From contig NC_092565.1 of assembly GCF_037975245.1 (NCBI RefSeq), forward strand, positions 23,210,063-23,274,062: 64,000 nt of DNA, given 5' to 3'. How positions within the stretch are numbered: position 1 is the first letter of the stretch; each line of letters opens with the position of its first letter. The position numbers and the translations under genes are program-made. The DNA comes from Apostichopus japonicus. Taxonomy: Eukaryota. Positions 8,974 to 41,500 of this stretch are shown piece by piece. The notes below the pieces were generated by a model. It ran no database searches, was not told where the DNA came from, and saw only the letters and a list, made by a program, of their open reading frames with translations.

Positions 8974-9024
8974 ACAACTAATGAAGAGCATGATGAAGTA
9001 CCTCAGGAGGAAATGAATACTATG
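8974..9024 (+). CDS. 51-nt cassette exon copy 3
   Basis: Identical exon and splice context. Confidence 0.45.
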
Positions 9025-10300: not shown

Positions 10301-10351
10301 ACAACTAATGAAGAGCATGATGAAGTACCTCAGGAGGAAATGAATACTATG
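10301..10351 (+). CDS. 51-nt cassette exon copy 4
   Basis: Identical exon and splice context. Confidence 0.45.
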
Positions 10352-11627: not shown

Positions 11628-11678
11628 ACAACTAATGAAGAGCATGATGAAGTACCTCAGGAGGAAATGAATACTATG
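11628..11678 (+). CDS. 51-nt cassette exon copy 5
   Basis: Identical exon and splice context. Confidence 0.45.
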
Positions 11679-12564: not shown

Positions 12565-12615
12565 ACAACTAATGAAGAGCATGTTGAAGTGCCTCAGGAG
12601 GAAATGAATACTATG
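12565..12615 (+). CDS. 51-nt cassette exon copy 6 (variant HVEVP: GAT>GTT, GTA>GTG)
   Basis: Same context. Point variants keep the frame open. Confidence 0.4.
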
Positions 12616-13429: not shown

Positions 13430-13480
13430 ACAACTAATGAAGAGCAGGATGAAGTACCTCAGGAGGAAATGAATACTATG
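13430..13480 (+). CDS. 51-nt cassette exon copy 7 (variant CAT>CAG, H>Q)
   Basis: Same context in a more diverged unit. Confidence 0.4.
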
Positions 13481-14364: not shown

Positions 14365-14415
14365 ACAACTAATGAAGAGCATGATGAAGTGCCTCAGGAG
14401 GAAATGAATACTATG
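14365..14415 (+). CDS. 51-nt cassette exon copy 8 (silent GTA>GTG)
   Basis: Same context. Confidence 0.4.
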
Positions 14416-15710: not shown

Positions 15711-15747
15711 GAAACTGCATGCAAATCAACATCAGTCTCATTCACAG
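15711..15747 (+). CDS. Small exon (ETACKSTSVSFT+G)
   Basis: cttgttttag|GAAACTGC...TTCACAG|gtgagt. Phase chaining with the next exons leaves a single continuous open frame. Confidence 0.4.
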
Positions 15748-15871
15748 GTGAGTTTTATTGTGTTCAATCCGAACAAATTGTTTTAAATACTTTTAGAGCC
15801 ATTTTACTTTTATTGAACTCACTAATTTTTATCAGTTCTGTAAACTGCAAACTTCATTTTCACTCTTTCAG

Positions 15872-15931
15872 AATCCCCAAATGGTGCATTATATTTTGAT
15901 GCTGATCTGAGAAAATACCATCATTCACTTG
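15872..15931 (+). CDS. 60-nt exon (ESPNGALYFDADLRKYHHSL)
   Basis: cactctttcag|AATCCCC...CACTTG|gtaagtg. Only the +2 frame is open, which fits a phase-1 join from 15747. Confidence 0.45.
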
Positions 15932-16146
15932 GTAAGTGAAACAGCATTTAAATAGCCTTTTAATTGTTACCTATTAATTAACAAGTTTTCTTTATGTATT
16001 CTGTTAGATATTTTATGCTATATATATTTCATTATATTTTGATGCCGATCTGAGAAAAATGAAGCCTTTGGACTATTAATTTTTAATGAGAACACTCTCT
16101 TCATTGTCTTTATGACTTATCGATTTTCATTTTTAAATTGCCACAG

Positions 16147-16206
16147 ATAACAACCCCAATGAGCCTGTGTTTTTGGATGAAATGACAGGGAATATGTACT
16201 CATATG
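16147..16206 (+). CDS. 60-nt exon (DNNPNEPVFLDEMTGNMYSY), paralogous in length and periodicity to 15872-15931
   Basis: ccacag|ATAACAACC...CATATG|gtgagtt. Only one frame is open. Confidence 0.45.
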
Positions 16207-16421
16207 GTGAGTTAAATTGACATGTTACCTGAATGTTTATTTAACCGACTGAATGCAAAAGTAACATTTTTGAATTTCTGTAATTACAAAATATTAAGAT
16301 ATTTCAGATATTTTTAGATATTGCTCTATCATGCCTATTTGGTATTGGCTAAACTTATTTACTGTAATAGGAATAGATGTATAATATCCAAAACTTAAAC
16401 AATTATTCTTCATTTCAACAG

Positions 16422-16447
16422 ATATTTGTACTGTATCCTGCCAAGAG
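16422..16447 (+). CDS. 26-nt exon (DICTVSCQE) that restores phase 0
   Basis: catttcaacag|ATATTTG...CAAGAG|gtaaag. Confidence 0.35.
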
Positions 16448-17603: not shown

Positions 17604-17660
17604 GAGTATCCTGAACTTCAACCAGTATTTGATAAAATGATGCAGCAAATAGAAGAACAG
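17604..17660 (+). CDS. 57-nt exon (EYPELQPVFDKMMQQIEEQ)
   Basis: tttgatttacag|GAGTATCC...GAACAG|gtaaac. Phase 0. Confidence 0.45.
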
Positions 17661-18114
17661 GTAAACAGTCTTGCATAAATTATAGGCCTATCTCAGTGAA
17701 TGTTTCCCAGCTGTCTTGATGATGCATATCTACAAGTATTAATTATCAGGGGTACTGTTAATTAGCTAAAGACTAGACTTTTAAGTCGCCAAAATGAAAA
17801 GATCTAGTCGCCATGGCCACCAGAATATACTGTATGTGAAAGGTGTGATCAGATTATCTGTGTGAAACTAGAATCTGCAGTTTGCTCCACACATGATAGT
17901 GTCTATGGGTACCATTGGCTTACAATTGCAACTGATCAATGTACCAATGAATCACTTGGCACTCCAGTAATGTTGGAAGGTGAAAGCCAAAGACCAAGAA
18001 TTGGCAGCTAACTAACAATGTCAGGCAATATGTATTGCAGCTGGAGAGTTATATATTGTATATCAACAATGAATTTATATGGTTTATTGATTCACATTAT
18101 TCTACTTCTTGCAG

Positions 18115-18165
18115 ACATCTGATGATGATAGTGACAAAGCTATCTACGAAGAAAATGATTCCAAG
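18115..18165 (+). CDS. 51-nt acidic exon copy 1 (TSDDDSDKAIYEENDSK)
   Basis: cttcttgcag|ACATCTGATGATGATAGTGAC...GATTCCAAG|gtatgtac. Same length and phase as the upstream TTNEEHDEV cassette. Confidence 0.5.
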
Positions 18166-18387
18166 GTATGTACAGTACTACCCTTGCAGTTACAGTAATT
18201 ATTTCAAACCACACTTTTTCAAAAAACAATTGAGTCTCCTATTCCAGTTACAATGCAGATAAATAAATGGAATGGAAATATCACTTGAACAATATGTATT
18301 GCAGCTGTCACCTGGAGAGTTATATATTGTATATCAACAATGAATTTATATATGGTTTATTGATTCACTTTATTCTACTTCTTGCAG

Positions 18388-18438
18388 ACATCTGATGATG
18401 ATAATGACAAAGCTATCTACGAAGAAAATGATTCCAAG
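18388..18438 (+). CDS. 51-nt acidic exon copy 2 (TSDDDNDKAIYEENDSK)
   Basis: Tandem duplicate with the same splice context. Confidence 0.5.
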
Positions 18439-18655
18439 GTATGTACAGTACTACCCTTGCAATTAATTATTTCAAACCACACTTTTTCAAAAAACAATTG
18501 AGTCTCCTATTCCAGTTACAATGCAGATAAATAAATGGAATGGAAATATCACTTGAACAATATGTATTGCAGCTGTCACCTGGAGAGTTATATATTGTAT
18601 ATCAACAATGAATTTATATATGGTTTATTGATTCACTTTATTTTACTTCTTGCAG

Positions 18656-18706
18656 ACATCTGATGATGATAATGACAAAGCTATCTATGAAGAAAATGAT
18701 TCCAAG
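18656..18706 (+). CDS. 51-nt acidic exon copy 3
   Basis: Tandem duplicate with the same splice context. Confidence 0.5.
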
Positions 18707-19477
18707 GTATGTACAGTACTACCCTTGCAGTTAATTATTTCAAACCACACTTTTTCAAAAAAACAATTGAGTCTCCTATTCCAGTTACAATGCAGATAAA
18801 TAAATGGAATGGAAATATCACTTGAACAATATGTATTGCAGCTGTCACCTAGAGAGATTCAAAAACTTACTGGTTTGGATATTTACGAGTGACGAGCTTA
18901 CCTGTCTCCTCACAACCTTAGCACCTCATTCTACCGTGCCTATAAAGTCCTGGTAAAATAATAACACTGTGCGCCCTCTATGACCGAACCCCCCCTCGGT
19001 CACTCCTCACTACTCATGAGACCACTCCTTAAAAGTGGCCTCACGGTCACCGAAATAGGGGTGGCCAGAATCCTCTGGCCACCCCCAAGGACTCCCGTCG
19101 ACTAAACTTCTCAAAGGTGAGCCCTTAACAAAAGGCACTGATGCCTTCCTAGCAGGGAGAGTGTAATCCTCCCCGCCGCAGCGGGTAAGGGGGGGGGGGA
19201 CACTCTCCTGAGCCCTGCAGGCGAAACTACCCCTTTTTCCTAACAAGGAGCCTCATCCTGTAAAGGCCCAACACTTGCTAACCCTAAGACAACTTAGGTG
19301 AGTACGCCTATGAAAAACACAGGGTGCAAAGTTACCCTCACCGATAGACCTGGCCGGTGACTCTTAGTAGTTGTTGGCTCTGTCTATCTGGTGTTGTGCT
19401 TGGAGTCGTGAGCCTAGTCGAACGACTGCTCCCCCGTCCGGCTGTGTCCCACCCCCTCGGGGGAGGGAGGCGGGAAT

Positions 19478-19575
19478 GGAGACAGGTAAGCTCGTCACTC
19501 GTAAATATCCAAACCAGTAAGTTTTGGAATATTTACTTCGCTCCTCGCTTACCTGTCTCCTCACAACCTTAGCAC
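19478..19575. repeat. Internal complementary region (ICR) of the DIRS-like element
   Basis: ggagacaggtaagctcgtcactcgtaaatatccaaaccagtaagtttt is the reverse complement of 18868-18909. ggaatatttacttcgctcctcgcttacctgtctcctcacaaccttagcac is the reverse complement of 25081-25130. Confidence 0.6.
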
Positions 19576-21573
19576 CGAGTGGCACTGCCCGATGGTGGGA
19601 GGCCCGAGGGGTGGGACCAAGTACCAACCGGCTACCACCGCGCTACCAAAAGCTGCCTCGGCGTGTAGAGTGTCAGGTAAGTAACAGGCGACGAACGTAG
19701 TTGGTGTTTTCCACGCTGCCACCTTGAGGATGTCCTGTATCGGGATACCGGCAGAGAGAGCTGTGGAAGCCGAGGCCCCACTGATGTTGTGATCTCTTGG
19801 CCGGGTATCCCCCCATCGTGAACGGGCGGATCATCTCTACTAGCCATCGGGATAGGGTATCCTTGGCGGCTGCTGTTTAAGGTGGTCGTGGCAGGATGAA
19901 AAGGGAGGTTGTTTGTCTCAACTTCTCTGTCCTGTTTAAGTACCACTTCAGTGCCCTGACTGGGCACCATCGCTTGTCCTCAGCCACTGATGAAAGGGTT
20001 TTGATTTCCGGAAAGAAAATGTCCCCGGGCAAGAAAGTCAAGGCCCGGTTCTTGGCAATAAGGGACGGGTCTGGAACTGTCCTCGCCCCATGGCCCTCGA
20101 ATCTGATGTGGTTCTGTTTGGTTGTTAGGGCTTGGAGGTAACTCCTTCACGCTGACGCTACCGCAATGACGAAGAGTGTTTTCTTTGTAAGAGCAGCCAG
20201 GGAAACGTTCCCCGACGATTCGTACAGCGGCCCTGCCAGGGCATGCAGCACTGCTGAGAGCCCCGCAGAGGGGGCTAACTGTCTGACTCGTGGACGGCGA
20301 TGAGCCATGCCTTTGGTGAGCTGGTCAATGTCTGGGTTAATGCCCAGCGTGGAGCCGTCTGGAAAACCAGACGTCCCCGTCTGGGGCCTGTGTGTGGGAC
20401 CTGCGGCCTGGGACCCGGGGTCCGGAGGGAGCCACTAGGATGAGTTTACCCTTGGAGCTGCGAATCTTCCTCAGTATCTGGCTGATCATGCCAAAGGGGG
20501 GGGGGGAAGAATTTAAACCTCTGGTCCGTCTCAAGGCAGGGACCTGGCGCTATGTGGGAGGCTGCAGGTGGGACCGCCTGTTACAAAAGATGGGCAGCCC
20601 ATTGTTGCCCTTTGTCGTAAGCAGGTCTATCAGAGGTATGCCGAACATGTGGAAAAACCTACCGCATGTTCCTTGCGAAGGGTTTACTCGTCGGGGTCGA
20701 GTTGTCCCCTGGGCAGAGCATCGGCCCTCACACTCTCCTTTCTGGCTATATGGGAGACCCATAGGGCCGTGCCAGATTCTGCAGCTGTGGTGACGGTCTC
20801 CCATGCCAGACGGCACAATCTCTCTGCCCTGGAGTCCTGAGAGCGAGGCGGAAGTACATGAAACCTGGTTATCTTTGCAAATAGAGTGTTGGGGCCGATC
20901 CTTTGCCCTGCTGACGCCACTGTGGTGCAGGAAAGTGGTTTCTCTGTATATGCTGCTAAAGAAGTCAAGGACAGTGGCCTGTATGATAACCTTGTTAGCG
21001 CCTGCAGTACAGCAGCACTCGCAGTACTGCTTGCATTACCACAGTACCGCTGATGACCCCTTTAGTTATCAACCAGTTGCAATCAGAAAACCTCTGAAGA
21101 AAAGTAATGCCTTGATGATGTAGACCTAAGCTGTACCCTGTAGGGAGGTTTAATGGAGGTTCTTTCCATGAAAAATAATATTAATAATAATATTGAGGGT
21201 TGAACTGCGCCGGCCTATCTATCGATAACGAAGCCAGAGGCGCTAGCAATATTACCCTGGTCAACAATAACCTGTTAAACAGAGAGAAATCCCTCCTGGA
21301 TGGAAAGACGCAATGGAGATAAAGTGCCTTGCCCAAGGAAACAACAGAATGATCTGGCCAGGACTAAAACCTGCAAGCCTTAGATCACCAGTACACTGCC
21401 TACACCGCTTGACCACAGTGCTCTCCAAAAATTGAGTACTGAATGGATAGTTTGCTTCATCAGAGTCTTAATCAATGCTACAGCTGCTATGTGGCTTTTA
21501 CAACTACAGTATATGTATGTATTTGTGTATGTAATTTAGATCATCCTGCAAGTAGGAACTTGTGAAGAAGCCT

Positions 21574-21761
21574 CATTGGCTTATCAAAGCCGCAAGCTGA
21601 CCAAAGTCAGTCTCGTACATTCATATTTTAATGTCCATGACTATGAATTGTCAACAGCTCTGTAACTGGACAACATACATTAATCTTGGGGTGACTTGAA
21701 CCGGGGACCTTTTGATTGGAAGGCACCGGGTTTAACCACTGAGCTAACTAAGCTACAGCCC
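21574..21761 (-). mobile_element. Full-length tRNA-derived SINE (minus strand), nested in the DIRS-like element
   Basis: Minus-strand 5' head gggctgtagcttagttagctcagtggttaaacccggtgccttccaatcaaaaggtccccggttcaagtcacc carries A-box-like (TAGCTCAGTGG) and B-box-like (GGTTCAAGTC) sequences. Its 3' end cannot pair with its 5' end as an acceptor stem, so it is not a functional tRNA. Its body and tail match the 5887 and 6151 copies. Confidence 0.6.
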
Positions 21762-22052
21762 TACTCACCAGGAACAAACTCCCAACAGGGGATGTGTAGG
21801 GTGGGTTTGTAGAAATTCCACCTCATAAATCCTGGCTGTTTAACGGAGTCCAGGGAGTGACTCAGCAAACACAAAGGCGTTACTAAATGTTTAGTCTTTT
21901 GCTATGATAGCGTTATTAGAGGTGTAAGAAATATGTTACCGAAACCCTTTAGGGGCTATTATTTCAAAACAATTTCCGTTAAGACATTAATATAACATTA
22001 ATATAACGTAATATCTCATAGACATCTTATGTCAACGTTTTATCAACACCAC

Positions 22053-24290
22053 ATTTAACGTAATAAACACGTATTGAATGTTATGATAACGTACCCGTTA
22101 CTTCTCAAATCTCTTCCTGTCGAGATGTGTCCATTTCGTAGTGCAGTAAAGGTATCCAGCTTCCTATTGAAACCACCTAGCGCCTAGGCTAGTCAAGACT
22201 AGGCCATCAGGTGCTACGAAATGCAACTCTGCTTAAGATGTCGGAACATCGAACATTGTTCATAAAGCGCATGCTGTATGTTCGGAGCGTGTTAGCGCTT
22301 GTAACTTGCTGGGGTTGTATCCTACCCCTTTTTCAACTTACTAACGCGTTTGTCTTGGTAATTCACCAAAGAAATAGGAAGAAAGGCTTATTCCATAGGA
22401 TCGCTCACGTAGTCGATAGCTCGTTGCAGTAAAAGTTGAGCTTACACGTGTCAAGCCAGGTGGCTGCTTGGCCCCCCCCTCCTCTCTTAACAAATGTGCC
22501 ACGTTGTACCTTTTTTTCTGGCAGTTTGCCAAGGATCTATGAGCGTTATGTTTCCTGGCACTTTGCCAAGTCTCGAGAAAGTTCTCTTCCTAGCAGTTTG
22601 CCAAGGTTTTAAAGTAAACGGAATACTGTAAGTCATGAGAACCGATTTAAAACCCCTCAGTCTTACGCATTTTAACATGTTCTGGAAGTGGGTTCACCAG
22701 TGTTTTAAACGACAGTGTTTTTAAACACAAGTAAGATTTTAACCTAGGCAAATGGCGATGAATTATGATTAGAGAGGAGTATAATTAGCGAGGAGAATAT
22801 GACCCATGAGTGTCTGCAGGTACTCGATAAATAAACACACATTTGGGATGTGTAGTGGTAGCGGTGTTTTTCCGCAAATGATTCGAACCTGTCGTCGCCG
22901 CTCAAGCTGCTAGTTCCGGGAGGGGGACACTCCCCCTATTCTGGGAAGCGGGAGTAACCGTCCTCTGTAACCCCGAAATCTAGGGGTCGACCTCGTCGTC
23001 TAGGCCGGACAGGTTGCCCGACGCTCTGCAAACCAGGTCGTCCTTGCCGGGGAACAAATCAGGTTCCATTCTTTGGTCTGGGATTGATCGTGGTGTCGCG
23101 GCCGGGCTGGCCGTGGGTTGCGATCGCTCCTCGGCACCGATGTCTGTGTTCGGTGTCTGGGGATAAGTATTTCTCCCTTTGCCGTGGGAACCTGGCTCGG
23201 GGCTGGTTCTCTTTTCGGATTGGGCGCTTGCCCCTGCTACCCCGTTCTGGGGGCCCGGCATTGGTAATCTCGTCGGTTCCCGGCCTCAGGACCGGCCGCG
23301 GCTCCGGTTAGGGGGTCTGCGGGCCGGGCTTCTGCACCTGCTACCCCATTCTGGGGGCCTAGCAGTTGTTAATCTCGTTGTAAATGTTGTTGTAGTTGTA
23401 AATGTTATTGTAAATGTCGCAGTTGTAAATGTTGTTACTCTCGTAGGCTCCCGACTTCGGGACCAGTTTTGGATCCCGTTTGGAGATCTGCGGACCGGGC
23501 TTCTGCCCCTGCGCCCCCGTTCTCGTCGGGCCCGGGCCCTCCGGAGCCAATCTCTGAGGACCCAGCAGTCGATTGTATAGCTCTGGTTCCCGGCTCCGGG
23601 GGCGGTCTCGGATCTGGAGTGAAAACTCGGTTCTGCCTTCCCTTCGAGTCTCGCCGGACCCGGGGTCTCGCCGGACCCGGGGCCTCGCCGGACCCAGGCT
23701 CCCGGAGCCCGTCTCTGTGTGCGTACCACGCCGGGTACCACCACGCCGGTATTCCTCGACCCGGACATTCTGTCCTTTCCGGTGGGATTTTTTTTTTTTT
23801 TTTTTTTTCTCGCCGGACCCGGGCTCCCCGGAGCCTGCTATGGGACCGGCTCCGTTTCAGCGACCCCTCGGTCGTACTCTCTCTCTCGGACCCGAGCTCT
23901 CCGTGGCCTGTAGCCCGCGCTCCATGGGTCTCTCTTGCTGCGACCCGGACTGAGACGTTGCCTCTAGCCCGGCCGAGCCGTGCCTCTTCTCAAGAGGTCT
24001 TTTCTTGGCAGGAGCCTTGCTCCTGCCCTTCCCTCTGGCCGTAATCAACCGGACGTCGCCGGGACCGTTAGGGGTACTCTTTCTCTCTCTCTCCACCTCT
24101 CCTTCGGCCCTCTCCTGGCCACTTTCCTCCACCTCTCTCACCACTTCTCCCTCCTCCTCTCTCTCTCTCTCTTGTCTCTCCTATATCTTTTTCTGGGGCA
24201 CCGATGGCCTAAGGAATCAAGTCCAGCCTGCCCTAAAGCTTGCTTCTTAGACTCGTAAGCCACTGGTCTATCTAGTGCCACTGGGCTGGC
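22053..24290. repeat. Unclassified dispersed repeat X, copy 1 (inside the DIRS-like element)
   Basis: Collinear with 33805-35300: acatttaacgtaa..tgaatgttatgataacgtacccgttac..; the tandem motif tggcagtttgccaagg; the tract gctagttccggg...ccgtgggaacct.gctcgggc..ggtt; and a CT-rich 3' tract. Internal (GCCGGACCCGGGG)n repeats, a T21 run at 23783-23803 and an A11 run at 24395-24408. Confidence 0.6.
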
Positions 24291-25186
24291 GAAAAATTTA
24301 TGCAGACCAGGCATGGGTCCCGTCTGGTGTAGGTTCTACACTTAGGACACAAATCGTGTTCGACCCAGGTTCTGCCTGGCCGAAACATCGAAAGTTAAAA
24401 AAAAAAACTTCAGCTGGTTACGAGACAAACTAAAACGCCCGAATTAAGGAAAGACTAACTCTTAAGCTTACGGAAAAATGCAAACTAGCAAGAGAACGGG
24501 AGAGAACGGGAGGTACATAACGGTGAGTAGAGGTACGTAGCGTAACCTAGCAACGGCAAAATACGAAAAACGCTATGAAGTGGCCTAACAAAATCAACAC
24601 AAGCTGAAAAAGAACATGAGAGAGCGAAATATAGAAGAAGAAATCGTGAATAGAAATACAATGTAGACATGCTATGAACATGAAAATACAACGACACGCC
24701 TATAGCGTGGGGAAGGGAAATTGGCGGGAAACCTAGGCAGTTCGCGGAACTGCTACCCCCGCAAAAAACCTAAGGGCGGAAACGCACTAGGAATAAAAAC
24801 AGTCCCCAAAACCCTCCCTTTCAACAAAAAAGGATACTTATCGGGCTGGAAAGGACTGCAATACTCCTAAGAATCCGAGGAAAGAAACTTCCAAAGATCG
24901 CTAAAGAAAACCAAGACGAAATCCAAGGGAAATATATCCACAAGAAATTCACGTGAAGACACTTTTAATGGTAGAATGAGTAGTGAGGAGTGACCGAGGG
25001 GGGGGGAGGGGTTCGGTCATAGAGGGCGCACAGTGTTATTATTTTACCAGGACTTTATAGGCACGGTAGAATGAGGTGCTAAGGTTGTGAGGAGACAGGT
25101 AAGCGAGGAGCGAAGTAAATTTCTATATTGTATATCAACAATGAATTTATATGGTTTATTGATTCACTTTATTCTACTTCTTGCAG

Positions 25187-25237
25187 ACATCTGATGATGA
25201 TAATGACAAAGCTATCTATGAAGAAAATGATTCCAAG
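25187..25237 (+). CDS. 51-nt acidic exon copy 4, lying to the right of the DIRS-like insertion
   Basis: Identical to copy 3. The unit is separated from the array by the 6.3-kb insertion. Confidence 0.5.
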
Positions 25238-25918
25238 GTATGTACAGTACTACCCTTGCAGTTAATTATTTCAAATCACACTTTTTCAAAAAACAATTGA
25301 GTCTCCTAATATTCCAGTTACAATGCAGATAAATGAATGGAATGGAAATATCACTTGAACTTAATAAGAACCATGATGGCATTAAATTTCATGCATGAGA
25401 AGAGTTAAGGCAATCTGAGTGAATCTCATAGTATATACCAGAACATATATATAGAGAGGCAACATTTCATCAATATGAAGAATTTCTTTCTCACCAATAA
25501 ATGGAGACCTATTAAAGTAGAATCATGAAGCAAACAAACATACCCTTAACTACCTTTAAGTATTAGGCATTAGTGTTGTATTACTGTAGTTCCACTAAAA
25601 TTAGATCAAAATAATAGTCCTTATATTCTTCATAGAAACAACATAAGGAAGCGGTACATATATCCTCCAATCTAAATTATCTGTATGAAATGATGGAAGT
25701 CTGCAGTTGCACCACAACTGACAGTGAGTATGGGTACCACTGACCTACAACTGTATGTTAGTACAATGCATGCATGTGTGTCGCTCAAAAGTATGCATAA
25801 AAAATCGTGTGTGGAAGTAGTGTTACATATAGGATTTAAAAAAATAGTTGATGAGATTTTCATGTCATGGTCTGTCAATTAAACCCAACTTCTGTTTGTA
25901 TAGGAACAAAGCACACTA

Positions 25919-26481: not shown

Positions 26482-27503
26482 GTGTAGTGGTTAGTAACCA
26501 GCATTTATTCCATTTTAGCACAAAACATACACAAGATTAACCAAATATCATATTTACTCTAATTGCATAGATTTAGCATACAGTCTCCTACTATATGACA
26601 GTCTGTATACAATATTTATGTGAGTGCGCAACTTAATTTAGTGAGGTGCAAATTGACCAATCAGCATTTGCGACACCCACAATAGGATTTCACTCCACAA
26701 AAATCTACACATGAATTAACAAATTGACAAATTAATAGCATTTCTCCATAGCGTTAGATTGTAGTTCAATCAAATAAGTTTTTTGCGGGCTGCAATTAAT
26801 TCACACAAAAAGTTTGTGTTTTCAGAATTAAATTTGATTAGAAAATCTTTGAAACAGTGGCCCCATCAGAGCAAACATGTCCCAACGATTGGTACCTTGA
26901 CACCTGTTTTTACTACAAAGCAAAAACAACAACACACGGAGTGTTTACGTTCAGTCACAGTTGTTAAACAATAACAGGAATTCATGTTCTTGGTAACGAC
27001 ATATGACATGGCAGTTTGTCGCAATCAGGGATGTTCTTGGCCCCTAACTATAGTCACTTTACATGTACCTGATTTGCAAATCAATATTAACATAGTCCTA
27101 ATACATGCACATGGTTTTGTGTTTGTCTTAGCCCAGTGGCACTTCTATTAGATTGAATATGGCATTTGCCACTTTTAAAAAAACATGCATAAAGTTACTG
27201 ATGGACATTTTTTTCAAAGCTAACAAAATAACTAGATTATTGCACTACAGTTGGTATTCTAAGACTGTCATGCCAAAAAGTAAGATATTATATACCGATT
27301 CCCTAGAAACTCTATGGAAAGCAGTGGCGGATCCAGGATTTCTGAAACGAGGGGCCCTCTTAATTTTCGCAAGGGGGTGGGGGGACCCGCTGGTCCTGCC
27401 CTTGGAAAGTTATGCATAGCTTGCCATTTGAGATGCATTATACAGTACATGTAGTTCAAGGAAATTCTGTATTTGTATTAAATTTTCATGTCTTTTTACA
27501 TTA

Positions 27504-27551
27504 GATTCCAAAAAGGCTAAGGAAACTTAGACAATTAAGAAGCTACTCTAA
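27504..27551 (+). CDS. Candidate terminal exon of the acidic-repeat gene (IPKRLRKLRQLRKLL, stop TAA at 27549-27551)
   Basis: Strong polypyrimidine tract and AG (tttcatgtctttttacattag|) at 27483-27503. A phase-0 join from the 51-nt exons gives a short basic tail and then a stop. All three frames hit stops before 27538. Confidence 0.35.
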
Positions 27552-29742
27552 AGATGATGCTGTCGAAAGTGATTTTGTACCATTTGATGAAGAAAGCGAC
27601 ACCTCTTCAGAAGAAGATGCTAACACATCAGATGAAGGCTATGCTGCTGATGAGAATCAACCCAGTACTAGTAATAAGGTATGTGTATTATCAACAGAGT
27701 ACACTGCCCCAGAGGAAAAATCAAAAAGAGCTTGGAACAGACAACACTACTGCATCTACTGTGAGAAAACTGTTCTACAAATAGCACGACATTTCAAAAC
27801 TCATCATTTTGATGAATCATTGGTGATTAAGGCCTTAAATGAACCTAAAAAGTCAAAGGAACGAAATGCCATTTTTGAAGAATTAAGAAAAAAGGGGGAC
27901 CATGCCCACAATATAAAAGTCTTCAAAGAAGGAAAAGGTCAACTTTTGGTGTATAAAAGACCACAAATGGGGCTACTGGATGCAGAGGATTTCATTCCTT
28001 GTCCAGATTGTCACGGATATTTTGCAAAAAGATCTCTCTGGAGACACCAGAAAAATTGCACCTCAGAATCTAAAAATGAAAGTAAACAAACCTTGGGCCT
28101 TCGGAGAGCTGCCAGAGTACTGCTTCCCACAAAGGCAGACTGCAGTTCAAAACTGCAGAACATACTTGCAGGTATGAAGGCTGACAATATTGTATTAACA
28201 ATACGTGCAGATCCTTGGTTATGCAAATTGGGGGAACACTACATCAATGACAGCCCAAATGCACACTACATTGTATCAGATAGGATGAGATCTGTTGCAC
28301 GTCTTCTTCTCGAGACCCAAAAGCTAAATTGTGCCATAAAATCAGCTAAAGATTTAGTAAATCCATGCCATTTTGATAATGTAATTTCAGGTGTGAAGGG
28401 CTGCTGTGGGTTTGACGATGCATCGCAAATGTTTGCCACACCATCATTGGCTAAAAAGCTAGGTCAAAGCTTAAATGTGCTGGCAGATATAAGTATTGCA
28501 GAAGCAATAAAAGCTGCAGATGCTTCACAAGAGAACATGGCCGAGCAATTCTTAAAGCTTAAGAAATTGCAGTGGAACAAGAAAATTGCCACTAAAATCT
28601 ACAAACAGCAAAGCAAACAAAAGTGGCAAAAGCCCCCTAAAATACCACTAACAGCTGATACTGTGAAATTGTATCAACTATTATCATGTAACATAAAAGA
28701 GACAAAAGAAAGTTTGAAAACAGAGGTAACAACATCGCTATGGAGGGAGTTGGCCTCACTAACTCTTACACAACTGATAATGTTTAACAGACGTCGACCT
28801 GGGGAAACCCAGAATCTTAAACTGGAAGATTACAAACAACAAACAGGGCAAAAAAAAGACTTTCAAGATGAGATATATGATTCACTTCCAGTAGCACAAA
28901 AAATTGCCTCAAAAAGGCTAAGCCTAATAATGACAAGGGGTAAGCGAGACCGCGGTGTTCCAGTAATGCTAACCCCCAACATGAAAGATTCAATAGAAAT
29001 ACTGAACAACACTAGGGAACTTGCTGGTGTTGATCCCCAAAACCCTTACATCTTTGCATGCCCATCAGGGGAGTCTCTACAGCCTCTTCGTGGATATGAT
29101 TGCCTGCATAAATATGCACAACAGTGTGGGGCTCAAAATCCTGAACGCCTTACAGCCACAAATATGAGGAAGCATCTTGCTACATTGTCACAAATTTTGA
29201 ATCTTTCAGAATCAGAATTAGAACAACTGGCTAATCACTTGGGGCATAATATCAGTGTTCACAAAGAATACTACCGCCTTCCACAAGATGTGATATTTCT
29301 TGCGAAAGTCAGCAAACTGTTACTTACTGCTGAAAAGGGCCATATTCATAAGTATCAAGGAAAAGCTTTGGCAGATTTTGAAATAGATAATAAAGAACTC
29401 TTGTCAGATAGAGAAATGTCTGATGAGAATGAAAGTGAGATAGATGAAGTTGAAACTCAAGAAATACCTGATAGCCAGGCTCATACAACTGTCAATACAA
29501 AATACAAAAAGAGAGTAATATCCTCAAGAACAAAATGGAGTAAACATGAAGAAACGGCTGTCATGAATGACCCACAGCTTAAGAAAGCCATCAAAACCAT
29601 GCATCCTCCTGCATACAAAGCATGTCATGATGCAAGAGAAAACAATGCCTGTTTGCAAAATAGGTCAATTACACAAATCAAATCCAAAGTTTGGAACATT
29701 ATACAGAAAAAATCTAAAGCACAGTTACAAAAGGAGCATTAG
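27538..29742 (+). CDS. Crypton-like tyrosine recombinase ORF (734 codons, stop-to-stop). Domains in order: acidic N-terminal stretch, two C2H2/C2HC-like zinc fingers, YR N-terminal and catalytic domains, and a C-terminal Myb/SANT-like tail.
   Basis: Uninterrupted frame from 27538 to TAG at 29740-29742. Zinc finger 1 is HYCIYCEKTVLQIARHFKTHH; zinc finger 2 is CPDCHGYFAKRSLWRHQKNC. YR box I is LIMFNRRRPGETQNLKLEDY. A beta-hairpin Lys in IMTRGKRDRGVPV. Box II is NMRKHLATL...LANHLGHNISVHKEYYRL (His and Tyr nucleophile). C-terminal tail RTKWSKHEETAVMNDP...RSITQIKSKVWNII. The first in-frame ATG is at ~27966, after zinc finger 1, so the true 5' end is probably an upstream or spliced exon. Confidence 0.7.
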   Translation, partial: RSYSKDDAVESDFVPFDEESDTSSEEDANTSDEGYAADENQPSTSNKVCVLSTEYTAPEEKSKRAWNRQHYCIYCEKTVLQIARHFKTHHFDESLVIKALNEPKKSKERNAIFEELRKKGDHAHNIKVFKEGKGQLLVYKRPQMGLLDAEDFIPCPDCHGYFAKRSLWRHQKNCTSESKNESKQTLGLRRAARVLLPTKADCSSKLQNILAGMKADNIVLTIRADPWLCKLGEHYINDSPNAHYIVSDRMRSVARLLLETQKLNCAIKSAKDLVNPCHFDNVISGVKGCCGFDDASQMFATPSLAKKLGQSLNVLADISIAEAIKAADASQENMAEQFLKLKKLQWNKKIATKIYKQQSKQKWQKPPKIPLTADTVKLYQLLSCNIKETKESLKTEVTTSLWRELASLTLTQLIMFNRRRPGETQNLKLEDYKQQTGQKKDFQDEIYDSLPVAQKIASKRLSLIMTRGKRDRGVPVMLTPNMKDSIEILNNTRELAGVDPQNPYIFACPSGESLQPLRGYDCLHKYAQQCGAQNPERLTATNMRKHLATLSQILNLSESELEQLANHLGHNISVHKEYYRLPQDVIFLAKVSKLLLTAEKGHIHKYQGKALADFEIDNKELLSDREMSDENESEIDEVETQEIPDSQAHTTVNTKYKKRVISSRTKWSKHEETAVMNDPQLKKAIKTMHPPAYKACHDARENNACLQNRSITQIKSKVWNIIQKKSKAQLQKEH

Positions 29743-33488: not shown

Positions 33489-33618
33489 TGGACACTCGGG
33501 ACCTAGAAATGGACAGTCTGGACTTAGAAATGGACAGTCTGGACCTGAAATTGGACGCTCGGGACCTAATAGTAGACAGTCGGGACCTAATGAATAATGG
33601 ACAGTCTGGACTTGATAG
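33489..33618. repeat. Minisatellite, ~6 units of 21-24 bp (ggacagtctggacctagaaat-like)
   Basis: Direct reading. It produces the periodic LDTRDLEMDSLDLEMDSLDL ORF artefact. Confidence 0.8.
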
Positions 33619-33778
33619 CTTATTCCTCCTGTCTCAGAAACGGACCCCTAGGTAAAACTTTAAAGTGCCCTCATTACAGGAGTAAACGACTTGAAACAAG
33701 TTTAAGATCATCACTTGATAGTACGCATCGAGTTACATCACGACACCAATTTATGTCCCGAAAACTATGTCGAATATG

Positions 33779-33808
33779 CTAACCCTAAGCTAACCCTAGC
33801 TAACCCAC
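33779..33808. repeat. Short interstitial telomere-like tract (CCCTAA-like x3, imperfect)
   Basis: ctaaccctaagctaaccctagctaaccc sits immediately 5' of repeat X copy 2. Confidence 0.4.
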
Positions 33809-35300
33809 ATTTAACGTAAACACGTAATGAATGTTATGATAACGTACCCGTTACTCCTCAAATCTCTCCATGTCGAGACGTGTCAATTTCGTAGTGTAGT
33901 ACAGTAGAAGTATCCAACTTCCTATTGAAACCACCTAGCGCATAGCCACGACTAGGCTATCAGGTGCTACAAAATGCAACTGTGCTTAAAATGTCGGAAC
34001 ATCGAACATTATTCATGAAGCGCATACTGTATGCTCGGAGCGCTTGTACCTTCGCTGGGGTTTTATCCTACCCCTTTTCCAACTTACTAACGCGTTTGTC
34101 TTGGTAATTCACCCAAAAAGTAGAGAGAGAGGCTTATTCCATGGGATCGCTCACGTAGTCGACAGCTCGTTGCAGCAAACGTTGAGCTTACACGTGTCAA
34201 TCCAGGTGACTGCTCGCCCCCCCCCCCCCCTCTCATAACAAATATACAGCGCGGGTATATCTTCTTGGCAGTTTGCCAAGGTACTAAAAAGGGCTTCGTT
34301 TTCCTGGCACTTTGCCAAGTTTCGAGAACGTTCTCTTCCTGGCAGTTTGCCAAGGTACTACGAGACTGTACTAGAATCGCTTCAGTTTTGCGCATTTTGA
34401 CATGCTCTAGAGGGGGTTCCACAAGCGTTTTAAACAACAAAACACAAGTAAGGTTTCAAACCTAGACATATGGCGATGAATTATAATGAGAGAGAAGTAT
34501 AATTAGCGAGGAGAATATGACCCATGAATGCCCAGGAAATCTATGTCATGTCCTGGTTTCTGCTGGTACTCGTTAAACACACATTTGGGATGTGTAGTGA
34601 TAAATGGTGTAGCGATTGCAGTGTCTTTCCGCAATTGATTCGAACCTGTCGTTGCAGCTCAAGCTGCTAGTTCCGGGGGGCAACACTCCCCTGATGAAAG
34701 AGACTTTTCCCCCTCTTGGAAGCGGGATTAACTTTGAGGCTGGGGATACGTATATCTCCGTTTGCCGTGGGAACCTCGCTCGGGCCGGCTTTCTTTTCGG
34801 ATTGGGCGTTTGCCCTTACTACCCCGTTCTGGGGGCCCAGCAGTTGTTGATCTCATCGGTTCCCGGCTCCGGGACCGGCTCCTGGGATCCGGAGTGGAAC
34901 CTCGGTTCCGCACTCCCTGTGAGGGCTCGCCGGACCCGTGGTCTCGTCGGACCCGGGCCCCCGGAGCCCATCTCGGTGTGCGTACCTAGCCGGGTACCAC
35001 TCCCCTCGACCTGGACATTCTGTCCGTTCCGGTCGGAATTTCAAATGGGCTATTTATTGGCCTTGAGCCTTGCCCTTGCCTTCACCCTTGGTCATAGAAT
35101 CCGGACGGTGCCGGGACCTTGGGGGCAATATCTCTTTCTCCTCTCTCTCTCTCCTCCGGCCTCTCTCGCCGGACTCGGGCTCCCGGAGCCTATCTTCCTC
35201 AAAATAACCCCCCTATCATCCCAGGGAGGGATCGCTGGACCTCCCATCTACCACAACGTTTTAAGTTTTACCTCTTAAAGTGCCCCCAGTCAACAGGAGG
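33805..35300. repeat. Repeat X, copy 2. Its 3' end grades into the satellite array.
   Basis: See copy 1. Its end (35196-35250, ctcaaaataacccccctatcatcccagggagggatcgc) matches the first ~40 bp of the satellite monomer. Confidence 0.6.
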
Positions 35301-35539
35301 GGGTTTCAAGAAGACGTATTTTTTCACAGTTTTCAAAACAAAAACACCTATTTTCCCATAAATAGAATTCATAATGATAAATAACCTTTCCTGATAAGAA
35401 AATTACACGGTCTTGGTAGCTAACGCAAGCTGATAGTCTCTGCTACTTACCCTGAAATGGTGTTGTCGCTGAAATCCCATGTGTGGGCGTGAGGAGGGTC
35501 CAAGAGAGGTCCAAAAGCGAGATTCCTCCTTATACTCTC

Positions 35540-38500
35540 ATGTTAAATTTTGTATTTTTTCTGTTTTTTCTCTCAAAATAACCCCCCTATCACCCTAGGG
35601 GGGATCGCACTCCCAATTATGTTACCATTTTGGACAGCAGACACCCTAGTGGTGGTACCCTGTCAAAATGGGCCCAAAAGGGCCTGGCTCCTGTGCGTGG
35701 TAAGGCCTGCAAGGTCCAAAGCGGGTTCCCTCCGTATACTCTAACGTTAAATTATTGACTTATTTCGTGGGTTTTCACAAAACAACCCCCCTATCACCCT
35801 TGGGAGGAATCGCACCCCCAATTATTGTACCATTTTGGACAGCAGACACCCTAGTGGGGGTACCCTGTCAAAATGGGCCCAAAAGGGCCTGGCTCCTGTG
35901 CGTGGTAAGGCCTGCAAGGTCCAAAAGCGGGTTTCCTCCACTCTAACGTTAAATTATTGACTTATTTCGGGGGTTTTCACAAAATAGCCCCCCTATCACC
36001 CTTGGGAGGAATCGCACCCCCAATAATTGTACCATTTTGGACAGCAGACACCCCAGTGGGGGTACCCTGTCAAAATGGGCCAAAAAGGGTCAAGACCCTG
36101 TGCGTGGTAAGGCCTGCAAGGTCCAAAAGCGGGTTTCATCCGTATACTCTAACGTTAAATTATTGTCTAATTTCGGTGTTTTTCACAAAATAACCCCCCT
36201 ATCACCCTAGGGGGATCGCACTCCAAATTATGTTACCATTTTGGACAGCAGACACCCTAGTGGTGGTACCCTGTCAAAATGGGCCCAAAAAGACCAGGCT
36301 CATGTGCGTGGTAAGGCCTGCAAAGTCCAAAAGCGGGTTTCCTCCGTATACTCTTATGTTAAATTATTGACTACTTTCGGTGTTTTTCACAAAATAACCC
36401 CCCTATCACCCTAGGGGGGATCGCACTCCAAATTATGTTACCATTTTGGACAGCAGACACCCTAGTGGTGGTATCCTGTAAAATTGGGCCAAAAATGGTC
36501 AGGCCCTGTGCGTGGTAAGGCCTGTAAGGTCCATAAGTGGGTTTCCTCCCAATACTCTAATGTTAAATTTTGTATTTTTTCGTTTTTTTTTCTCAAAATA
36601 ACCCCCCTATCACCCTAGGGGGGATCGCACTCCCAATTATGTTACCATTTTGGACAGCAGACACCCTAGTGGTGGTACCCTGTCAAAATGGGCCCAAAAG
36701 GGCCTGGCTCCTGTGCGTGGTAAGGCCTGCAAGGTCCAAAGCGGGTTCCCTCCGTATACTCTAACGTTAAATTATTGACTTATTTCGTGGGTTTTCACAA
36801 AACAACCCCCCTATCACCCTTGGGAGGAATCGCACCCCCAATTATTGTACCATTTTGGACAGCAGACACCCTAGTGGGGGTACCCTGTCAAAATGGGCCC
36901 AAAAGGGCCTGGCTCCTGTGCGTGGTAAGGCCTGCAAGATCCAAAGCGGGTTTCCTCCACTCTAACGTTAAATTATTGACTTATTTCGGGGGTTTTCACA
37001 AAATAGCCCCCCTATCACCCTTGGGAGGAATCGCACCCCCAATAATTGTACCATTTTGGACAGCAGACACCCCAGTGGGGGTACCCTGTCAAAATGGGCC
37101 CAAAAGGGTCAAGACCCTGTGCGTGGTAAGGCCTGCAAGGTCCAAAAGCGGGTTTCATCCGTATACTCTAACGTTAAATTATTGTCTAATTTCGGTGTTT
37201 TTCACAAAATAACCCCCCTATCACCCTAGGGGGATCGCACTCCAAATTATGTTACCATTTTGGACAGCAGACACCCTAGTGGTGGTACCCTGTCAAAATG
37301 GGCCCAAAAAGACCAGGCTCATGTGCGTGGTAAGGCCTGCAAAGTCCAAAAGCGGGTTTCCTCCGTATACTCTTATGTTAAATTATTGACTACTTTCGGT
37401 GTTTTTCACAAAATAACCCCCCTATCACCCTAGGGGGGATCGCACTCCAAATTATGTTACCATTTTGGACAGCAGACACCCTAGTGGTGGTATCCTGTAA
37501 AATTGGGCCAAAAATGGTCAGGCCCTGTGCGTGGTAAGGCCTGTAAGGTCCATAAGTGGGTTTCCTCCCAATACTCTAATGTTAAATTTTGTATTTTTTC
37601 GTTTTTTTTTCTCAAAATAACCCCCCTATCACCCTAGGGGGGATCGCACTCCCAATTATGTTACCATTTTGGACAGCAGACACCCTAGTGGGGGTACCCT
37701 GTCAAAATGGGCCCAAAAAGACCAGGCTCATGTGCGTGGTAAGGCCTGCAAGGTCCAAAAGCGGGTTTCCTCCGTATACTCTAATGTTAAATTATTGACT
37801 AATTTCGGTGTTTTTCACAAAATAACCCCCCTATCACCCTAGGGGGGATCGCACTCCCAATAATGTTACCATTTTGGACAGCAGACACCCTAGTGGTGGT
37901 ACCCTGTCAAAATGGGCCCAAAAGGGCCTGGCTCCTGTGCGTGGTAAGGCCTGCAAGGTCCAAAGCGGGTTCCCTCCGTATACTCTAACGTTAAATTATT
38001 GACTTATTTCGGGGGTTTTCACAAAACAACCCCCCTATCACCCTTGGGAGGAATCGCACCCCCAATTATTGTACCATTTTGGACAGCAGACACCCTAGTG
38101 GGGGTACCCTGTCAAAATGGGCCCAAAAGGGCCTGGCTCCTGTGCGTGGTAAGGCCTGCAAGGTCCAAAAGCGGGTTTCCTCCACTCATAACGTTAAATT
38201 ATTGACTTATTTCGGGGGTTTTCACAAAATAGCCCCCCTATCACCCTTGGGAGGAATCGCACCCCCAATAATTGTACCATTTTGGACAGCAGACACCCCA
38301 GTGGGGGTACCCTGTCAAAATGGGCCAAAAAGGGTCAAGACCCTGTGCGTGGTAAGGCCTGCAAGGTCCAAAAGCGGGTTTCATCCGTATACTATAACGT
38401 TAAATTATTGTCTAATTTCGGTGTTTTTCACAAAATAACCCCCCTATCACCCTAGGGGGATCGCACTCCAAATTATGTTACCATTTTGGACAGCAGACAC

Positions 38501-41500
38501 CCTAGTGGTGGTACCCTGTCAAAATGGGCCCAAAAAGACCAGGCCCATGTGCGTGGTAAGGCCTGCAAGGTCCAAAAGCGGGTTTCCTCCGTATACTCTA
38601 ATGTTAAATTATTGACTAATTTCGGTGTTTTTCACAAAATAACCCCCCTATCACCCTAGGGGGGATCGCACTCCAAATTATGTTACCATTTTGGACAGCA
38701 GACACCCTAGTGATGGTATCCTGTAAAATTGGGCCAAAAATGGTCAGGCCCTGTGCGTGGTAAGGCCTGTAAGGTCCATAAGTGGGTTTCCTCCCAATAC
38801 TCTAATGTTAAATTTTGTATTTTTTCGTTTTTTTTTCTCAAAATAACCCCCCTATCACCCTAGGGGGGATCGCACTCCCAATAATGTTACCATTTTGGAC
38901 AGCAGACACCCTAGTGGTGGTACCCTGTCAAAATGGGCCCAAAAGGGCCTGGCTCCTGTGCGTGGTAAGGCCTGCAAGGTCCAAAGCGGGTTCCCTCCGT
39001 ATACTCTAACGTTAAATTATTGACTTATTTCGGGGGTTTTCACAAAACAACCCCCCTATCACCCTTGGGAGGAATCGCACCCCCAATTATTGTACCATTT
39101 TGGACAGCAGACACCCTAGTGGGGGTACCCTGTCAAAATGGGCCCAAAAGGGCCTGGCTCCTGTGCGTGGTAAGGCCTGCAAGGTCCAAAAGCGGGTTTC
39201 CTCCACTCATAACGTTAAATTATTGACTTATTTCGGGGGTTTTCACAAAATAACCCCCCTATCACCCTAGGGGGGATCGCACTCCAAATTATGTGACCAT
39301 TTTGGACAGCAGACACCCTAGTGATGGTATCCTGTAAAATTGGGCCAAAAATGGTCAGGCCCTAAGCGTGGTAAGGCCTGTAAGGTCCATAAGTGGGTTT
39401 CCTCCCAATACTCTAATGTTAAATTTTGTATTTTTTCGTTTTTTTTTCTCAAAATAACCCCCCTATCACCCTAGGGGGGATCGCACTCCCAATAATGTTA
39501 CCATTTTGGACAGCAGACACCCTAGTGGTGGTACCCTGTCAAAATGGGCCCAAAAGGGCCTGGCTCCTGTGCGTGGTAAGGCCTGCAAGGTCCAAAGCGG
39601 GTTCCCTCCGTATACTCTAACGTTAAATTATTGACTTATTTCGGGGGTTTTCACAAAACAACCCCCCTATCACCCTTGGGAGGAATCGCACCCCCAATTA
39701 TTGTACCATTTTGGACAGCAGACACCCTAGTGGGGGTACCCTGTCAAAATGGGCCCAAAAGGGCCTGGCTCCTGTGCGTGGTAAGGCCTGCAAGGTCCAA
39801 AAGCGGGTTTCCTCCACTCATAACGTTAAATTATTGACTTATTTCGGGGGTTTTCACAAAATAGCCCCCCTATCACCCTTGGGAGGAATCGCACCCCCAA
39901 TAATTGTACCATTTTGGACAGCAGACACCCCAGTGGGGGTACCCTGTCAAAATGGGCCAAAAAGGGTCAAGACCCTGTGCGTGGTAAGGCCTGCAAGGTC
40001 CAAAAGCGGGTTTCATCCGTATACTATAACGTTAAATTATTGTCTAATTTCGGTGTTTTTCACAAAATAACCCCCCTATCACCCTAGGGGGATCGCACTC
40101 CAAATTATGTTACCATTTTGGACAGCAGACACCCTAGTGGTGGTACCCTGTCAAAATGGGCCCAAAAAGACCAGGCCCATGTGCGTGGTAAGGCCTGCAA
40201 GGTCCAAAAGCGGGTTTCCTCCGTATACTCTAATGTTAAATTATTGACTAATTTCGGTGTTTTTCACAAAATAACCCCCCTATCACCCTAGGGGGGATCG
40301 CACTCCAAATTATGTTACCATTTTGGACAGCAGACACCCTAGTGATGGTATCCTGTAAAATTGGGCCAAAAATGGTCAGGCCCTGTGCGTGGTAAGGCCT
40401 GTAAGGTCCATAAGTGGGTTTCCTCCCAATACTCTAATGTTAAATTTTGTATTTTTTCGTTTTTTTTTCTCAAAATAACCCCCCTATCACCCTAGGGGGG
40501 ATCGCACTCCCAATAATGTTACCATTTTGGACAGCAGACACCCTAGTGGTGGTACCCTGTCAAAATGGGCCCAAAAGGGCCTGGCTCCTGTGCGTGGTAA
40601 GGCCTGCAAGGTCCAAAGCGGGTTCCCTCCGTATACTCTAACGTTAAATTATTGACTTATTTCGGGGGTTTTCACAAAACAACCCCCCTATCACCCTTGG
40701 GAGGAATCGCACCCCCAATTATTGTACCATTTTGGACAGCAGACACCCTAGTGGGGGTACCCTGTCAAAATGGGCCCAAAAGGGCCTGGCTCCTGTGCGT
40801 GGTAAGGCCTGCAAGGTCCAAAAGCGGGTTTCCTCCACTCATAACGTTAAATTATTGACTTATTTCGGGGGTTTTCACAAAATAGCCCCCCTATCACCCT
40901 TGGGAGGAATCGCACCCCCAATAATTGTACCATTTTGGACAGCAGACACCCCAGTGGGGGTACCCTGTCAAAATGGGCCAAAAAGGGTCAAGACCCTGTG
41001 CGTGGTAAGGCCTGCAAGGTCCAAAAGCGGGTTTCATCCGTATACTATAACGTTAAATTATTGTCTAATTTCGGTGTTTTTCACAAAATAACCCCCCTAT
41101 CACCCTAGGGGGATCGCACTCCAAATTATGTTACCATTTTGGACAGCAGACACCCTAGTGGTGGTACCCTGTCAAAATGGGCCCAAAAAGACCAGGCCCA
41201 TGTGCGTGGTAAGGCCTGCAAGGTCCAAAAGCGGGTTTCCTCCGTATACTCTTATGTTAAATTATTGACTAATTTCTGTGTTTTTCACAAAATAACCCCC
41301 CTATCACCCTAGGGGGGATCGCACTCCAAATTATGTTACCATTTTGGACAGCAGACACCCTAGTGGTGGTATCCTGTAAAATTGGGCCAAAAATGGTCAG
41401 GCCCTGTGCGTGGTAAGGCCTGTAAGGTCCATAAGTGGGTTTCCTCCCAATACTCTAATGTTAAATTTTGTATTTTTTCGTTTTTTTTTCTCAAAATAAC

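Follow-up and report, generated by a model that had tools for sequence, protein, structure and literature searches.

DNA transposons coding for a tyrosine recombinase (YR) are understood less well than any other class of eukaryotic mobile elements. They include the Crypton DNA transposons, which reportedly go back to work by Goodwin in 2003 and by Kojima and Jurka in 2011 and are said to comprise CryptonA and CryptonI in animals and CryptonF in fungi. In the model attributed to Goodwin, a Crypton is said to move when a short sequence at its terminus recombines with one that resembles it in the genome. CryptonV was reportedly described from cnidarians by Kapitonov and Jurka in Repbase Reports in 2012. 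Published animal Cryptons lack a C-terminal domain and give E values of at most 8e-12 with the DUF3504 profile, and the known domesticated DUF3504 genes have lost the catalytic residues (PMC3212892). For an active Crypton of Chlamydomonas, insertion via short homology between terminus and target has been seen directly (PMC9977147). Microsatellite targeting has been reported for CryptonV, as cited in PMC8869645. Endogenous nimaviral YRs, which are stated not to be close to DIRS, Enterprise or Crypton, target telomere repeats or microsatellites and carry C2H2 and SAM-like domains (PMC10871703). Here we describe a YR gene in a stretch of 64,000 nucleotides from the sea cucumber Apostichopus japonicus (contig NC_092565.1, positions 23,210,063 to 23,274,062 of the forward strand), which we refer to as the window and number from its first nucleotide.

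The gene ends in a large exon at 27505-29742 on the plus strand. We consider it likely that the gene belongs to a Crypton-like mobile element that is large, rich in introns, and low in copy number, and that this exon specifies the part of its recombinase responsible for DNA binding and catalysis. The full protein is fused to a KMT5A-like SET domain via linkers encoded by mini-exons.

A recombinase exon at the end of a SET-domain gene

The preliminary description of this locus had reported a stop-free frame of 734 codons at 27538-29742 and had read it as an intact, Crypton-like tyrosine recombinase open reading frame (ORF). The open frame is genuine and encodes a tyrosine recombinase, but it starts earlier and does not form a gene on its own. 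It opens at 27505, 33 nt earlier than first given, immediately 3' of a TAG that overlaps a polypyrimidine-AG splice acceptor (AG at 27503-27504), and therefore consists of 745 codons plus stop. From the local base composition, the probability that such a frame contains no stop is ∼1.4e-23, and the remaining five frames of the region have 27-70 stops each. A protein search recovered an A. japonicus 'uncharacterized protein' of 1017 amino acids (aa; P0001) as a 100% identical match, and by tblastn its aa 273-1017 correspond to 27505-29739 with 100% identity. The exon encodes a basic/acidic linker, two zinc fingers, the core-binding and catalytic domains of the YR, an acidic spacer, and a helix-turn-helix (HTH) tail.

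This exon is the last one of a gene of at least 29.7 kb with at least 18 exons. Seventeen exons lie upstream of it in the window, between 1169 and 25237, and 12 of them are tandemly duplicated mini-exons of 51 bp. The N-terminal part of P0001 is spread over many tiny exons from 1169 to 25240. In an exact peptide map, aa 151-1128 of the longest annotated isoform in the same cluster (P0225, 1128 aa) are collinear with 1169-29739, and its residues 1-150 are encoded to the left of the window. All exons have canonical splice sites, and every mini-exon is in phase 0 and flanked by CAG on its 5' side and GTATGT on its 3' side. Instead of a compact transposon frame, the locus contains the terminal exon of a SET-domain fusion gene of more than 29 kb.

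In P0225, the SET domain is followed by a repetitive acidic linker encoded by the mini-exons, two zinc fingers, an enlarged core-binding domain, the catalytic domain, an acidic spacer, and the HTH domain. The SET domain at its N-terminus is complete (Pfam, E 1.6e-17 over the full profile). That of a paralog (P0002) is closest to structures of KMT5A/SETD8 (E 4e-27), and the GxG and Y-D/N-Y motifs are mostly retained in the SET domains of the family. Relatives from fish and echinoderms show the same succession, from the SET domain through the zinc fingers and the core-binding and catalytic domains to the tail.

The mini-exons lie in two arrays on the plus strand. Array 1 (1-15043), defined by repeat families and the peptide map of P0225, is built of tandem DNA units of 0.86-1.33 kb that are up to 98-99% identical. 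Each unit holds one 51-bp phase-0 mini-exon, and the eight exons of the array (1169-1219, 2106-2156, 8974-9024, 10301-10351, 11628-11678, 12565-12615, 13430-13480, and 14365-14415) encode the 17-aa repeat TTNEE(H/Q)(D/V)EVPQEEMNTM. At ∼2220-7806, the array is broken by a non-repeat stretch of ∼5.6 kb without a convincing ORF, which may be an insertion or a deletion scar. Five unique small exons follow on the same strand (15711-15746, 15871-15930, 16146-16205, 16421-16447, and 17604-17660). They encode aa 236-315 of P0225 and were placed by exact peptide matches in order and by splice signals. Array 2 (18041-25308) consists of 268-bp tandem units (Tandem Repeats Finder period 268, three copies, 97% match; repeat family D10). 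Its four acidic 51-bp exons at 18115-18165, 18388-18438, 18656-18706, and 25187-25237 encode TSDDD(S/N)DKAIYEENDSK. A GC-rich block of ∼6.3 kb (18860-25147) splits array 2 within an intron. The long ORFs of this block are of low complexity and have no Pfam match, and a segment of 180 nt (22308-22487) is 90% identical to 34054-34233, beside the satellite described below. The block probably represents a further repeat family that lies nested within this intron.

In unrelated lineages (L013-L016, P0017, P0042), in-frame tandem mini-exon arrays (17, 33, 34 or 44 aa) are likewise located between SET domain and zinc fingers, and wherever the DNA of relatives was read, each mini-exon lies within a tandem DNA unit. 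In zebrafish (L005), Holothuria (L006), and a metagenome contig (L001), the HTH tail is encoded by its own exon, 4.7-7.6 kb 3' of the recombinase exon. This interval contains 865-bp tandem units carrying acidic mini-exons in L001, and the spacer region of relatives is interrupted by introns or mini-exons. The recombinase exon of the A. japonicus copy, in contrast, includes both spacer and tail, which implies that introns were lost.

Predicted fold and active site

The AlphaFold model of the recombinase has a mean predicted local distance difference test score (pLDDT) of 82, with values mostly above 90 in the core. A Foldseek comparison with the PDB returned XerH as the top match (E 1e-4, probability 1.0); the next matches were lambda Int, topoisomerase IB, and XerD. 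The model contains the two-domain YR fold, consisting of a helical core-binding domain and a catalytic domain. Judged by this predicted fold, the protein is a tyrosine recombinase.

The recombinase is preceded by two zinc fingers, as the preliminary description had proposed, and both are modeled as beta-beta-alpha folds (pLDDT >90 for the first). Zinc finger 1 (27739-27813, plus strand) is of the C2H2 type (C72-x2-C75-x9-H85-x4-H90), zinc finger 2 (27985-28065, plus strand) of the C2HC type (C155-x2-C158-x11-H170-x3-C174), and the ligands are conserved to at least 90% in 39 relatives. Pfam did not give a zinc-finger match in the window protein itself, and relatives gave weak ROS_MUCR and zf-C2HC-type matches at zinc finger 2. 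The remaining domains follow on the same strand: the enlarged all-helical core-binding (SAM-like) domain at 28090-28722, the catalytic domain at 28723-29373, an acidic disordered spacer at 29395-29526 (pLDDT <50 for residues 620-663), and the C-terminal homeodomain/Myb-like HTH domain at 29527-29739. This last domain is the tryptophan-spaced tail of the preliminary description. It is modeled with confidence (pLDDT 92.7), and its predicted homeodomain/Myb-like fold agrees in part with the Myb/SANT-like segment suspected there, as the Pfam Myb profile gave no match.

The motifs that had been quoted as evidence of a recombinase are all present, and their codon positions were checked: NRRRPGE with R420 (28795-28797), TRGKRDRGVPV with K469 (28942-28944), MRKH with R544 (29167-29169), and LGHNISVHKEYY with H570 (29245-29247) and Y579 (29272-29274). 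K469 is located in the turn of a predicted beta-hairpin (strands 462-467 and 473-478), where the catalytic Lys of YRs sits. In the family alignments, these five residues and the eight zinc ligands form near-invariant columns. Among 215 catalytic domains of the family, R420 is kept in 88%, K469 in 89%, R544 in 90%, H570 in 91%, and Y579 in 89%, and all five are kept jointly in 77%. Position 578 varies between Y and F across the family, and Y579 is therefore the candidate nucleophile. The claim of a complete catalytic set thus stands for Arg-Lys-Arg-His-Tyr, both here and family-wide, but fails for His-II, where the window protein has T541 (29158-29160).

In the register of Escherichia coli XerD, T541/R544 correspond to H244/R247 and H570/Y579 to H270/Y279, according to an hhalign alignment that is not statistically significant. 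All such alignments of the family catalytic profile with single reference YRs were non-significant, and only the one with XerD was sensible at box II. A MAFFT alignment with XerD, lambda Int, and Cre was misaligned and set aside.

The preliminary description had assigned the frame to the YR plus GCR1_C/Myb architecture of Cryptons and DUF3504-family genes, and had named a lack of significant profile matches as the result that would speak against it. At the sequence level, this was formally the outcome: Phage_integrase, DUF3504, and Myb profiles gave no match at E ≤ 1 with the window protein. DUF3504, GCR1_C, Myb_DNA-binding, and DUF3435 had no match among 86 family members (E ≤ 0.1-1), and no GCR1_C match was obtained with 25 isolated tails. 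Moreover, the YR plus GCR1_C layout had been ascribed to DUF3504 genes; it belongs to the fungal CryptonF instead. Phage_integrase (PF00589) was matched weakly by 6 of 84 relatives (1/38 and 5/46), with a best E of 5.4e-6.

These results bear directly on the idea that the ORF represents one of the described Crypton types in compact and intact form (CryptonA/I with a DUF3504-type YR or CryptonF with GCR1_C) or a young domestication of the DUF3504 type. The presence of a YR, the absence of a reverse transcriptase (RT), and a C-terminal DNA-binding-type domain behind the YR, as in CryptonF, would agree with it. But DUF3504 and GCR1_C were never matched in the 86 members, even at these permissive thresholds, whereas the YRs of published CryptonA elements do match DUF3504, with E values no higher than 8e-12, and a C-terminal domain is absent from animal Cryptons (PMC3212892). 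In addition, the ORF makes up a single exon within a SET-fusion gene longer than 29 kb, and its R-H-R-Y tetrad is without the His. We regard a described type of Crypton as very unlikely. A CryptonA or CryptonF identity was rejected because of the missing DUF3504 and GCR1_C, and the conserved C-terminal HTH domain likewise departs from the animal Cryptons. We place the family in neither CryptonA/I nor CryptonF.

In agreement with the preliminary description, no RT is encoded by the window ORFs of at least 150 aa, which comprise, beside the recombinase exon, only one exon with a homeobox and three low-complexity frames rich in GC. According to the ORF lists, there is also no ORF of RT or RNase H size in the window or in the 19.6-kb unit from the wrasse Halichoeres trimaculatus that is described below. 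This argues against a remnant of a YR retrotransposon (DIRS/Ngaro/PAT), and a DIRS or Ngaro identity was ruled out by the missing RT. The related possibility of an integrated large DNA virus with a YR integrase, e.g., of nimavirus-like origin, draws on two points: family members match the generic Phage_integrase and not DUF3504, and the nimaviral YRs that target telomere repeats or microsatellites also combine C2H2, SAM-like, and YR domains (PMC10871703). But the viral contigs of IMG/VR encode no relative, no viral genes were noticed in the neighborhoods read, and the sole match of retroelement type is a PNMA/gag-like ORF with a weak, sub-threshold score. A retroelement or viral remnant is thus the least probable of the explanations considered here, with hardly any chance of being right. 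The PNMA/gag-like ORF (L013, 12038-12583, minus strand; E 6e-5, below the Pfam cut-off) lies within a 6.5-kb intron of the wrasse unit and may be a nested retroelement fragment.

Family, copies and mobility

An exhaustive hidden Markov model search, with clusters counted at 50% identity, retrieved 16,922 of them at a threshold of E ≤ 1e-3. With E ≤ 1e-30, the number was 4,593, which we take as the minimum size of the family. The named members are mostly from teleosts, but holothurians, a hemichordate, molluscs, a priapulid, and insects are represented as well. A survey of the domains in 222 members showed in every one the zinc fingers, then the core-binding domain, and then the catalytic domain. 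The tail was present in about half of them and the SET domain in about a fifth, always ahead of the zinc fingers of its own unit; the SET domain is probably under-called, because it is encoded on separate exons. Many giant chimeric gene models contain 2-10 family copies. The family is very large, metazoan, and unnamed, and it behaves as a mobile element.

Near-identical copies were found in two species. In A. japonicus, the cluster at ≥90% identity around the window protein has members on records of 26.8, 37.5, and 46.0 Mb, each of which differs from the window terminal exon by one residue. In the wrasse, four copies (L013-L016) on four chromosomes have 98.9-99.9% DNA identity over at least 18.6-19.6 kb, including introns. 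Within the shared stretch lie the SET exons, a tandem array whose units of ∼1 kb carry mini-exons of 34 aa, the large exon, the 6.5-kb intron, and the tail exon. The number of mini-exon units varies among these otherwise 99%-identical copies (4, 6, and at least 8). All four copies end with the same final nucleotide (...CACAAAAACAAGGC), followed by (TG)16-40 and then by unrelated flanks, and an Ank/BTB gene on the opposite strand contains one of the copies. This pattern has the appearance of a discrete unit integrated into a microsatellite. In the wrasse, the 8.2 kb upstream of the SET exons contained no (TG)n. Two other proteins found on several contigs (P0040 and P0061) were discarded as evidence of mobility: they represent the same locus re-sampled and have no bearing on this question. 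The preliminary description had left the choice between an active element and a young domestication, and the active element is the better option because near-identical copies are present on several chromosomes.

The same data have to be weighed against a host gene family, in which a domesticated recombinase fused to a SET domain would spread by segmental duplication and serve a cellular role, e.g., in chromatin regulation or programmed rearrangement. The large multi-exon gene with its canonical introns and many annotated isoforms is what one would expect of such a family. The domain order and the separate tail exon are common to zebrafish, Holothuria, and others, each genome has few copies with older paralogs at 37-64% identity, and the zebrafish copy is flanked by ordinary genes. 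On the other hand, segmental duplication of a host gene does not fit four wrasse copies on four chromosomes with exactly the same 3' end at (TG)n and unrelated flanks, one of them inside another gene, nor near-identical sea-cucumber copies on at least three chromosomes. The taxonomic spread is patchy and does not track species relationships: the zebrafish and Holothuria proteins are 42% identical, the window and Holothuria proteins 37%. Thousands of clusters, many chimeric models with 2-10 copies, and the retention of the catalytic residues, unlike in the known domesticated DUF3504 genes (PMC3212892), also speak against it. We think that a host gene family, although the main rival interpretation, is unlikely.

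Several observations nevertheless count against an interpretation as a mobile YR element. With respect to the enzyme, sequence comparison of the protein with YR profiles and with YRs of solved structure gave nothing significant: Pfam gave zero matches at E ≤ 1 for the window protein, and phmmer and hmmsearch against the PDB sequences did not recover a YR with the ORF, the full family profile, or the catalytic-domain-only profile. The residue equivalence is based on motif register and the non-significant hhalign alignment. The canonical His-II of the R-H-R-Y tetrad is absent; in the 215 domains, this position is occupied by Thr in 81% and never by His, so that Thr at the His-II position is a family signature as judged from the aligned sequences. 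In the SET domains, the N-H cofactor motif reads N-D in 25 of 35 cases and never N-H, and because of this replacement methyltransferase activity is uncertain. With respect to mobility, a multi-exon gene of ∼30 kb with many annotated isoforms resembles a host gene. The 5' end of the wrasse unit lies beyond the stretch read, and no microsatellite occurs within 5 kb downstream of the stop of the window copy. Finally, the A. japonicus copies were compared as proteins, the discrete end that was observed is the 3' end in the wrasse, and self-mobility of the window copy can only be presumed.

If the exon indeed belongs to a Crypton-like mobile element, the protein would serve this element as its site-specific recombinase. 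Its zinc fingers, together with the core-binding and HTH domains, could recognize the element ends and the target, and Y579 would form the covalent 3'-phosphotyrosyl intermediate. Movement might then occur, as in the Crypton model attributed to Goodwin, by recombination of a short terminal sequence with a similar genomic sequence, which in the wrasse lineage would be a microsatellite. In the most speculative step, the SET domain could act on chromatin at the element or at its target. A more far-reaching proposal is that the locus holds a copy, active now or until recently, of an undescribed metazoan superfamily of intron-rich YR elements of at least 20-30 kb, characterized by a KMT5A-derived SET fusion, an R-K-T-R-H-Y site, mini-exon arrays, and site-specific integration into simple repeats. 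Such an element would carry its own chromatin-writer module. We put this forward only tentatively, as something that may well be true but has somewhat less than an even chance.

The window contains a few other features. Approximately 4 kb 3' of the stop, at the transition to a GC-rich region, there is a 21-bp repeat (5.7 copies, 33489-33611), and an imperfect telomere-like (GCTAACCCTAA) repeat (2.7 copies, 33778-33806) is located in the same zone. A satellite array at 35490-43190 has a ∼204-bp unit in more than 30 copies with a higher-order period of ∼1.02-1.23 kb; its GC content of ∼0.47-0.50 is well above that of the surroundings. An ORF at 45615-46277 on the minus strand encodes an NK-class homeodomain (Pfam Homeodomain, 2e-20), with Nkx-3.1 (1.2e-22) and Nkx-2.5 as best matches among solved structures. 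It is probably an exon of a neighboring host homeobox gene.

Comparison with known systems

In its coding content, the family resembles a Crypton in the operational sense of a YR-encoding DNA transposon: a YR is encoded, and the window and the wrasse unit contain no ORF of RT size. With regard to dispersed copies with discrete ends, the wrasse shows them for the 3' end, and the window locus has near-identical proteins on at least three chromosomes. It is most likely a Crypton-like YR DNA element with a new architecture, set apart from CryptonA/I and CryptonF among the Crypton groups. Repbase and Dfam also contain subgroups that are named but undescribed in papers, such as 'Crypton-H' from zebrafish. 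Full-text literature searches turned up no paper in which a tyrosine recombinase was connected with a SET or KMT5A domain. The suspicion in the preliminary description that the domain combination may be new is in line with this, since it appears to be undescribed.

If our interpretation is correct, thousands of proteins from fish, echinoderms, molluscs, insects, and other animals, which have no Pfam family and are annotated as 'uncharacterized protein', would belong to one family of mobile elements. This would account for confusing fish and invertebrate gene models with dozens of 'isoforms' or chimeric giant proteins. It would also be the first case in which a YR element is shown to have a recombinase joined to a histone-methyltransferase-type domain, tying transposition to chromatin marking. 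It would further provide a microsatellite-targeting integrase of animal origin, and site-specific recombinases that function in animal chromatin have practical value for genome engineering.

Like Cryptons, the family is eukaryotic and has a YR as its only recognizable mobility enzyme, without RT. Cryptons are also thought to insert by short homology between terminus and target, and CryptonF places a DNA-binding domain behind the YR. But the published elements are compact, those of animals being without a C-terminal domain, whereas the family has no DUF3504 or GCR1_C match, carries N-terminal zinc fingers and a SET domain, lacks the tetrad His, and occupies a multi-exon gene of at least 30 kb in a unit of at least 20 kb. 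With CryptonV, the comparison is by description only: its microsatellite insertion resembles the (TG)n-flanked 3' ends in the wrasse, but it was described from cnidarians, and no microsatellite boundary is seen at the sea-cucumber copy. Nimaviral YRs, also compared by description, share the integration of large elements into simple repeats. They reside in crustacean viral genomes with many viral genes, of which none were seen here, and the family has no relatives on viral contigs. The captain YRs of the fungal Starship/Enterprise elements (DUF3435) likewise mobilize large eukaryotic elements. In contrast to these, the family occurs in animals, has no DUF3435 match and no identified cargo genes, and its recombinase is a multi-domain fusion.

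Across both domains, the structures that match best are those of the bacterial/archaeal Xer recombinases XerH and XerA, of Cre, and of lambda Int. They have the same Arg-Lys-Arg-His-Tyr spacing; the nine residues from H570 to Y579 equal the distance from H270 to Y279 in XerD. The differences to Xer, Cre, and lambda Int are the low identity (∼10-19%), Thr at His-II, a much larger core-binding domain, and the additional zinc-finger, SET, and HTH domains. SETMAR consists of a SET domain and a mariner transposase, and KDZ elements are associated with TET/JBP genes. Both cases resemble the family in linking a chromatin or epigenetic enzyme domain to a transposase. But SETMAR is a fused host gene of primates in which the transposase is of the DDE type and the SET domain of another class, whereas here a KMT5A-like SET domain is combined with a YR in a mobile family that is distributed over several phyla.

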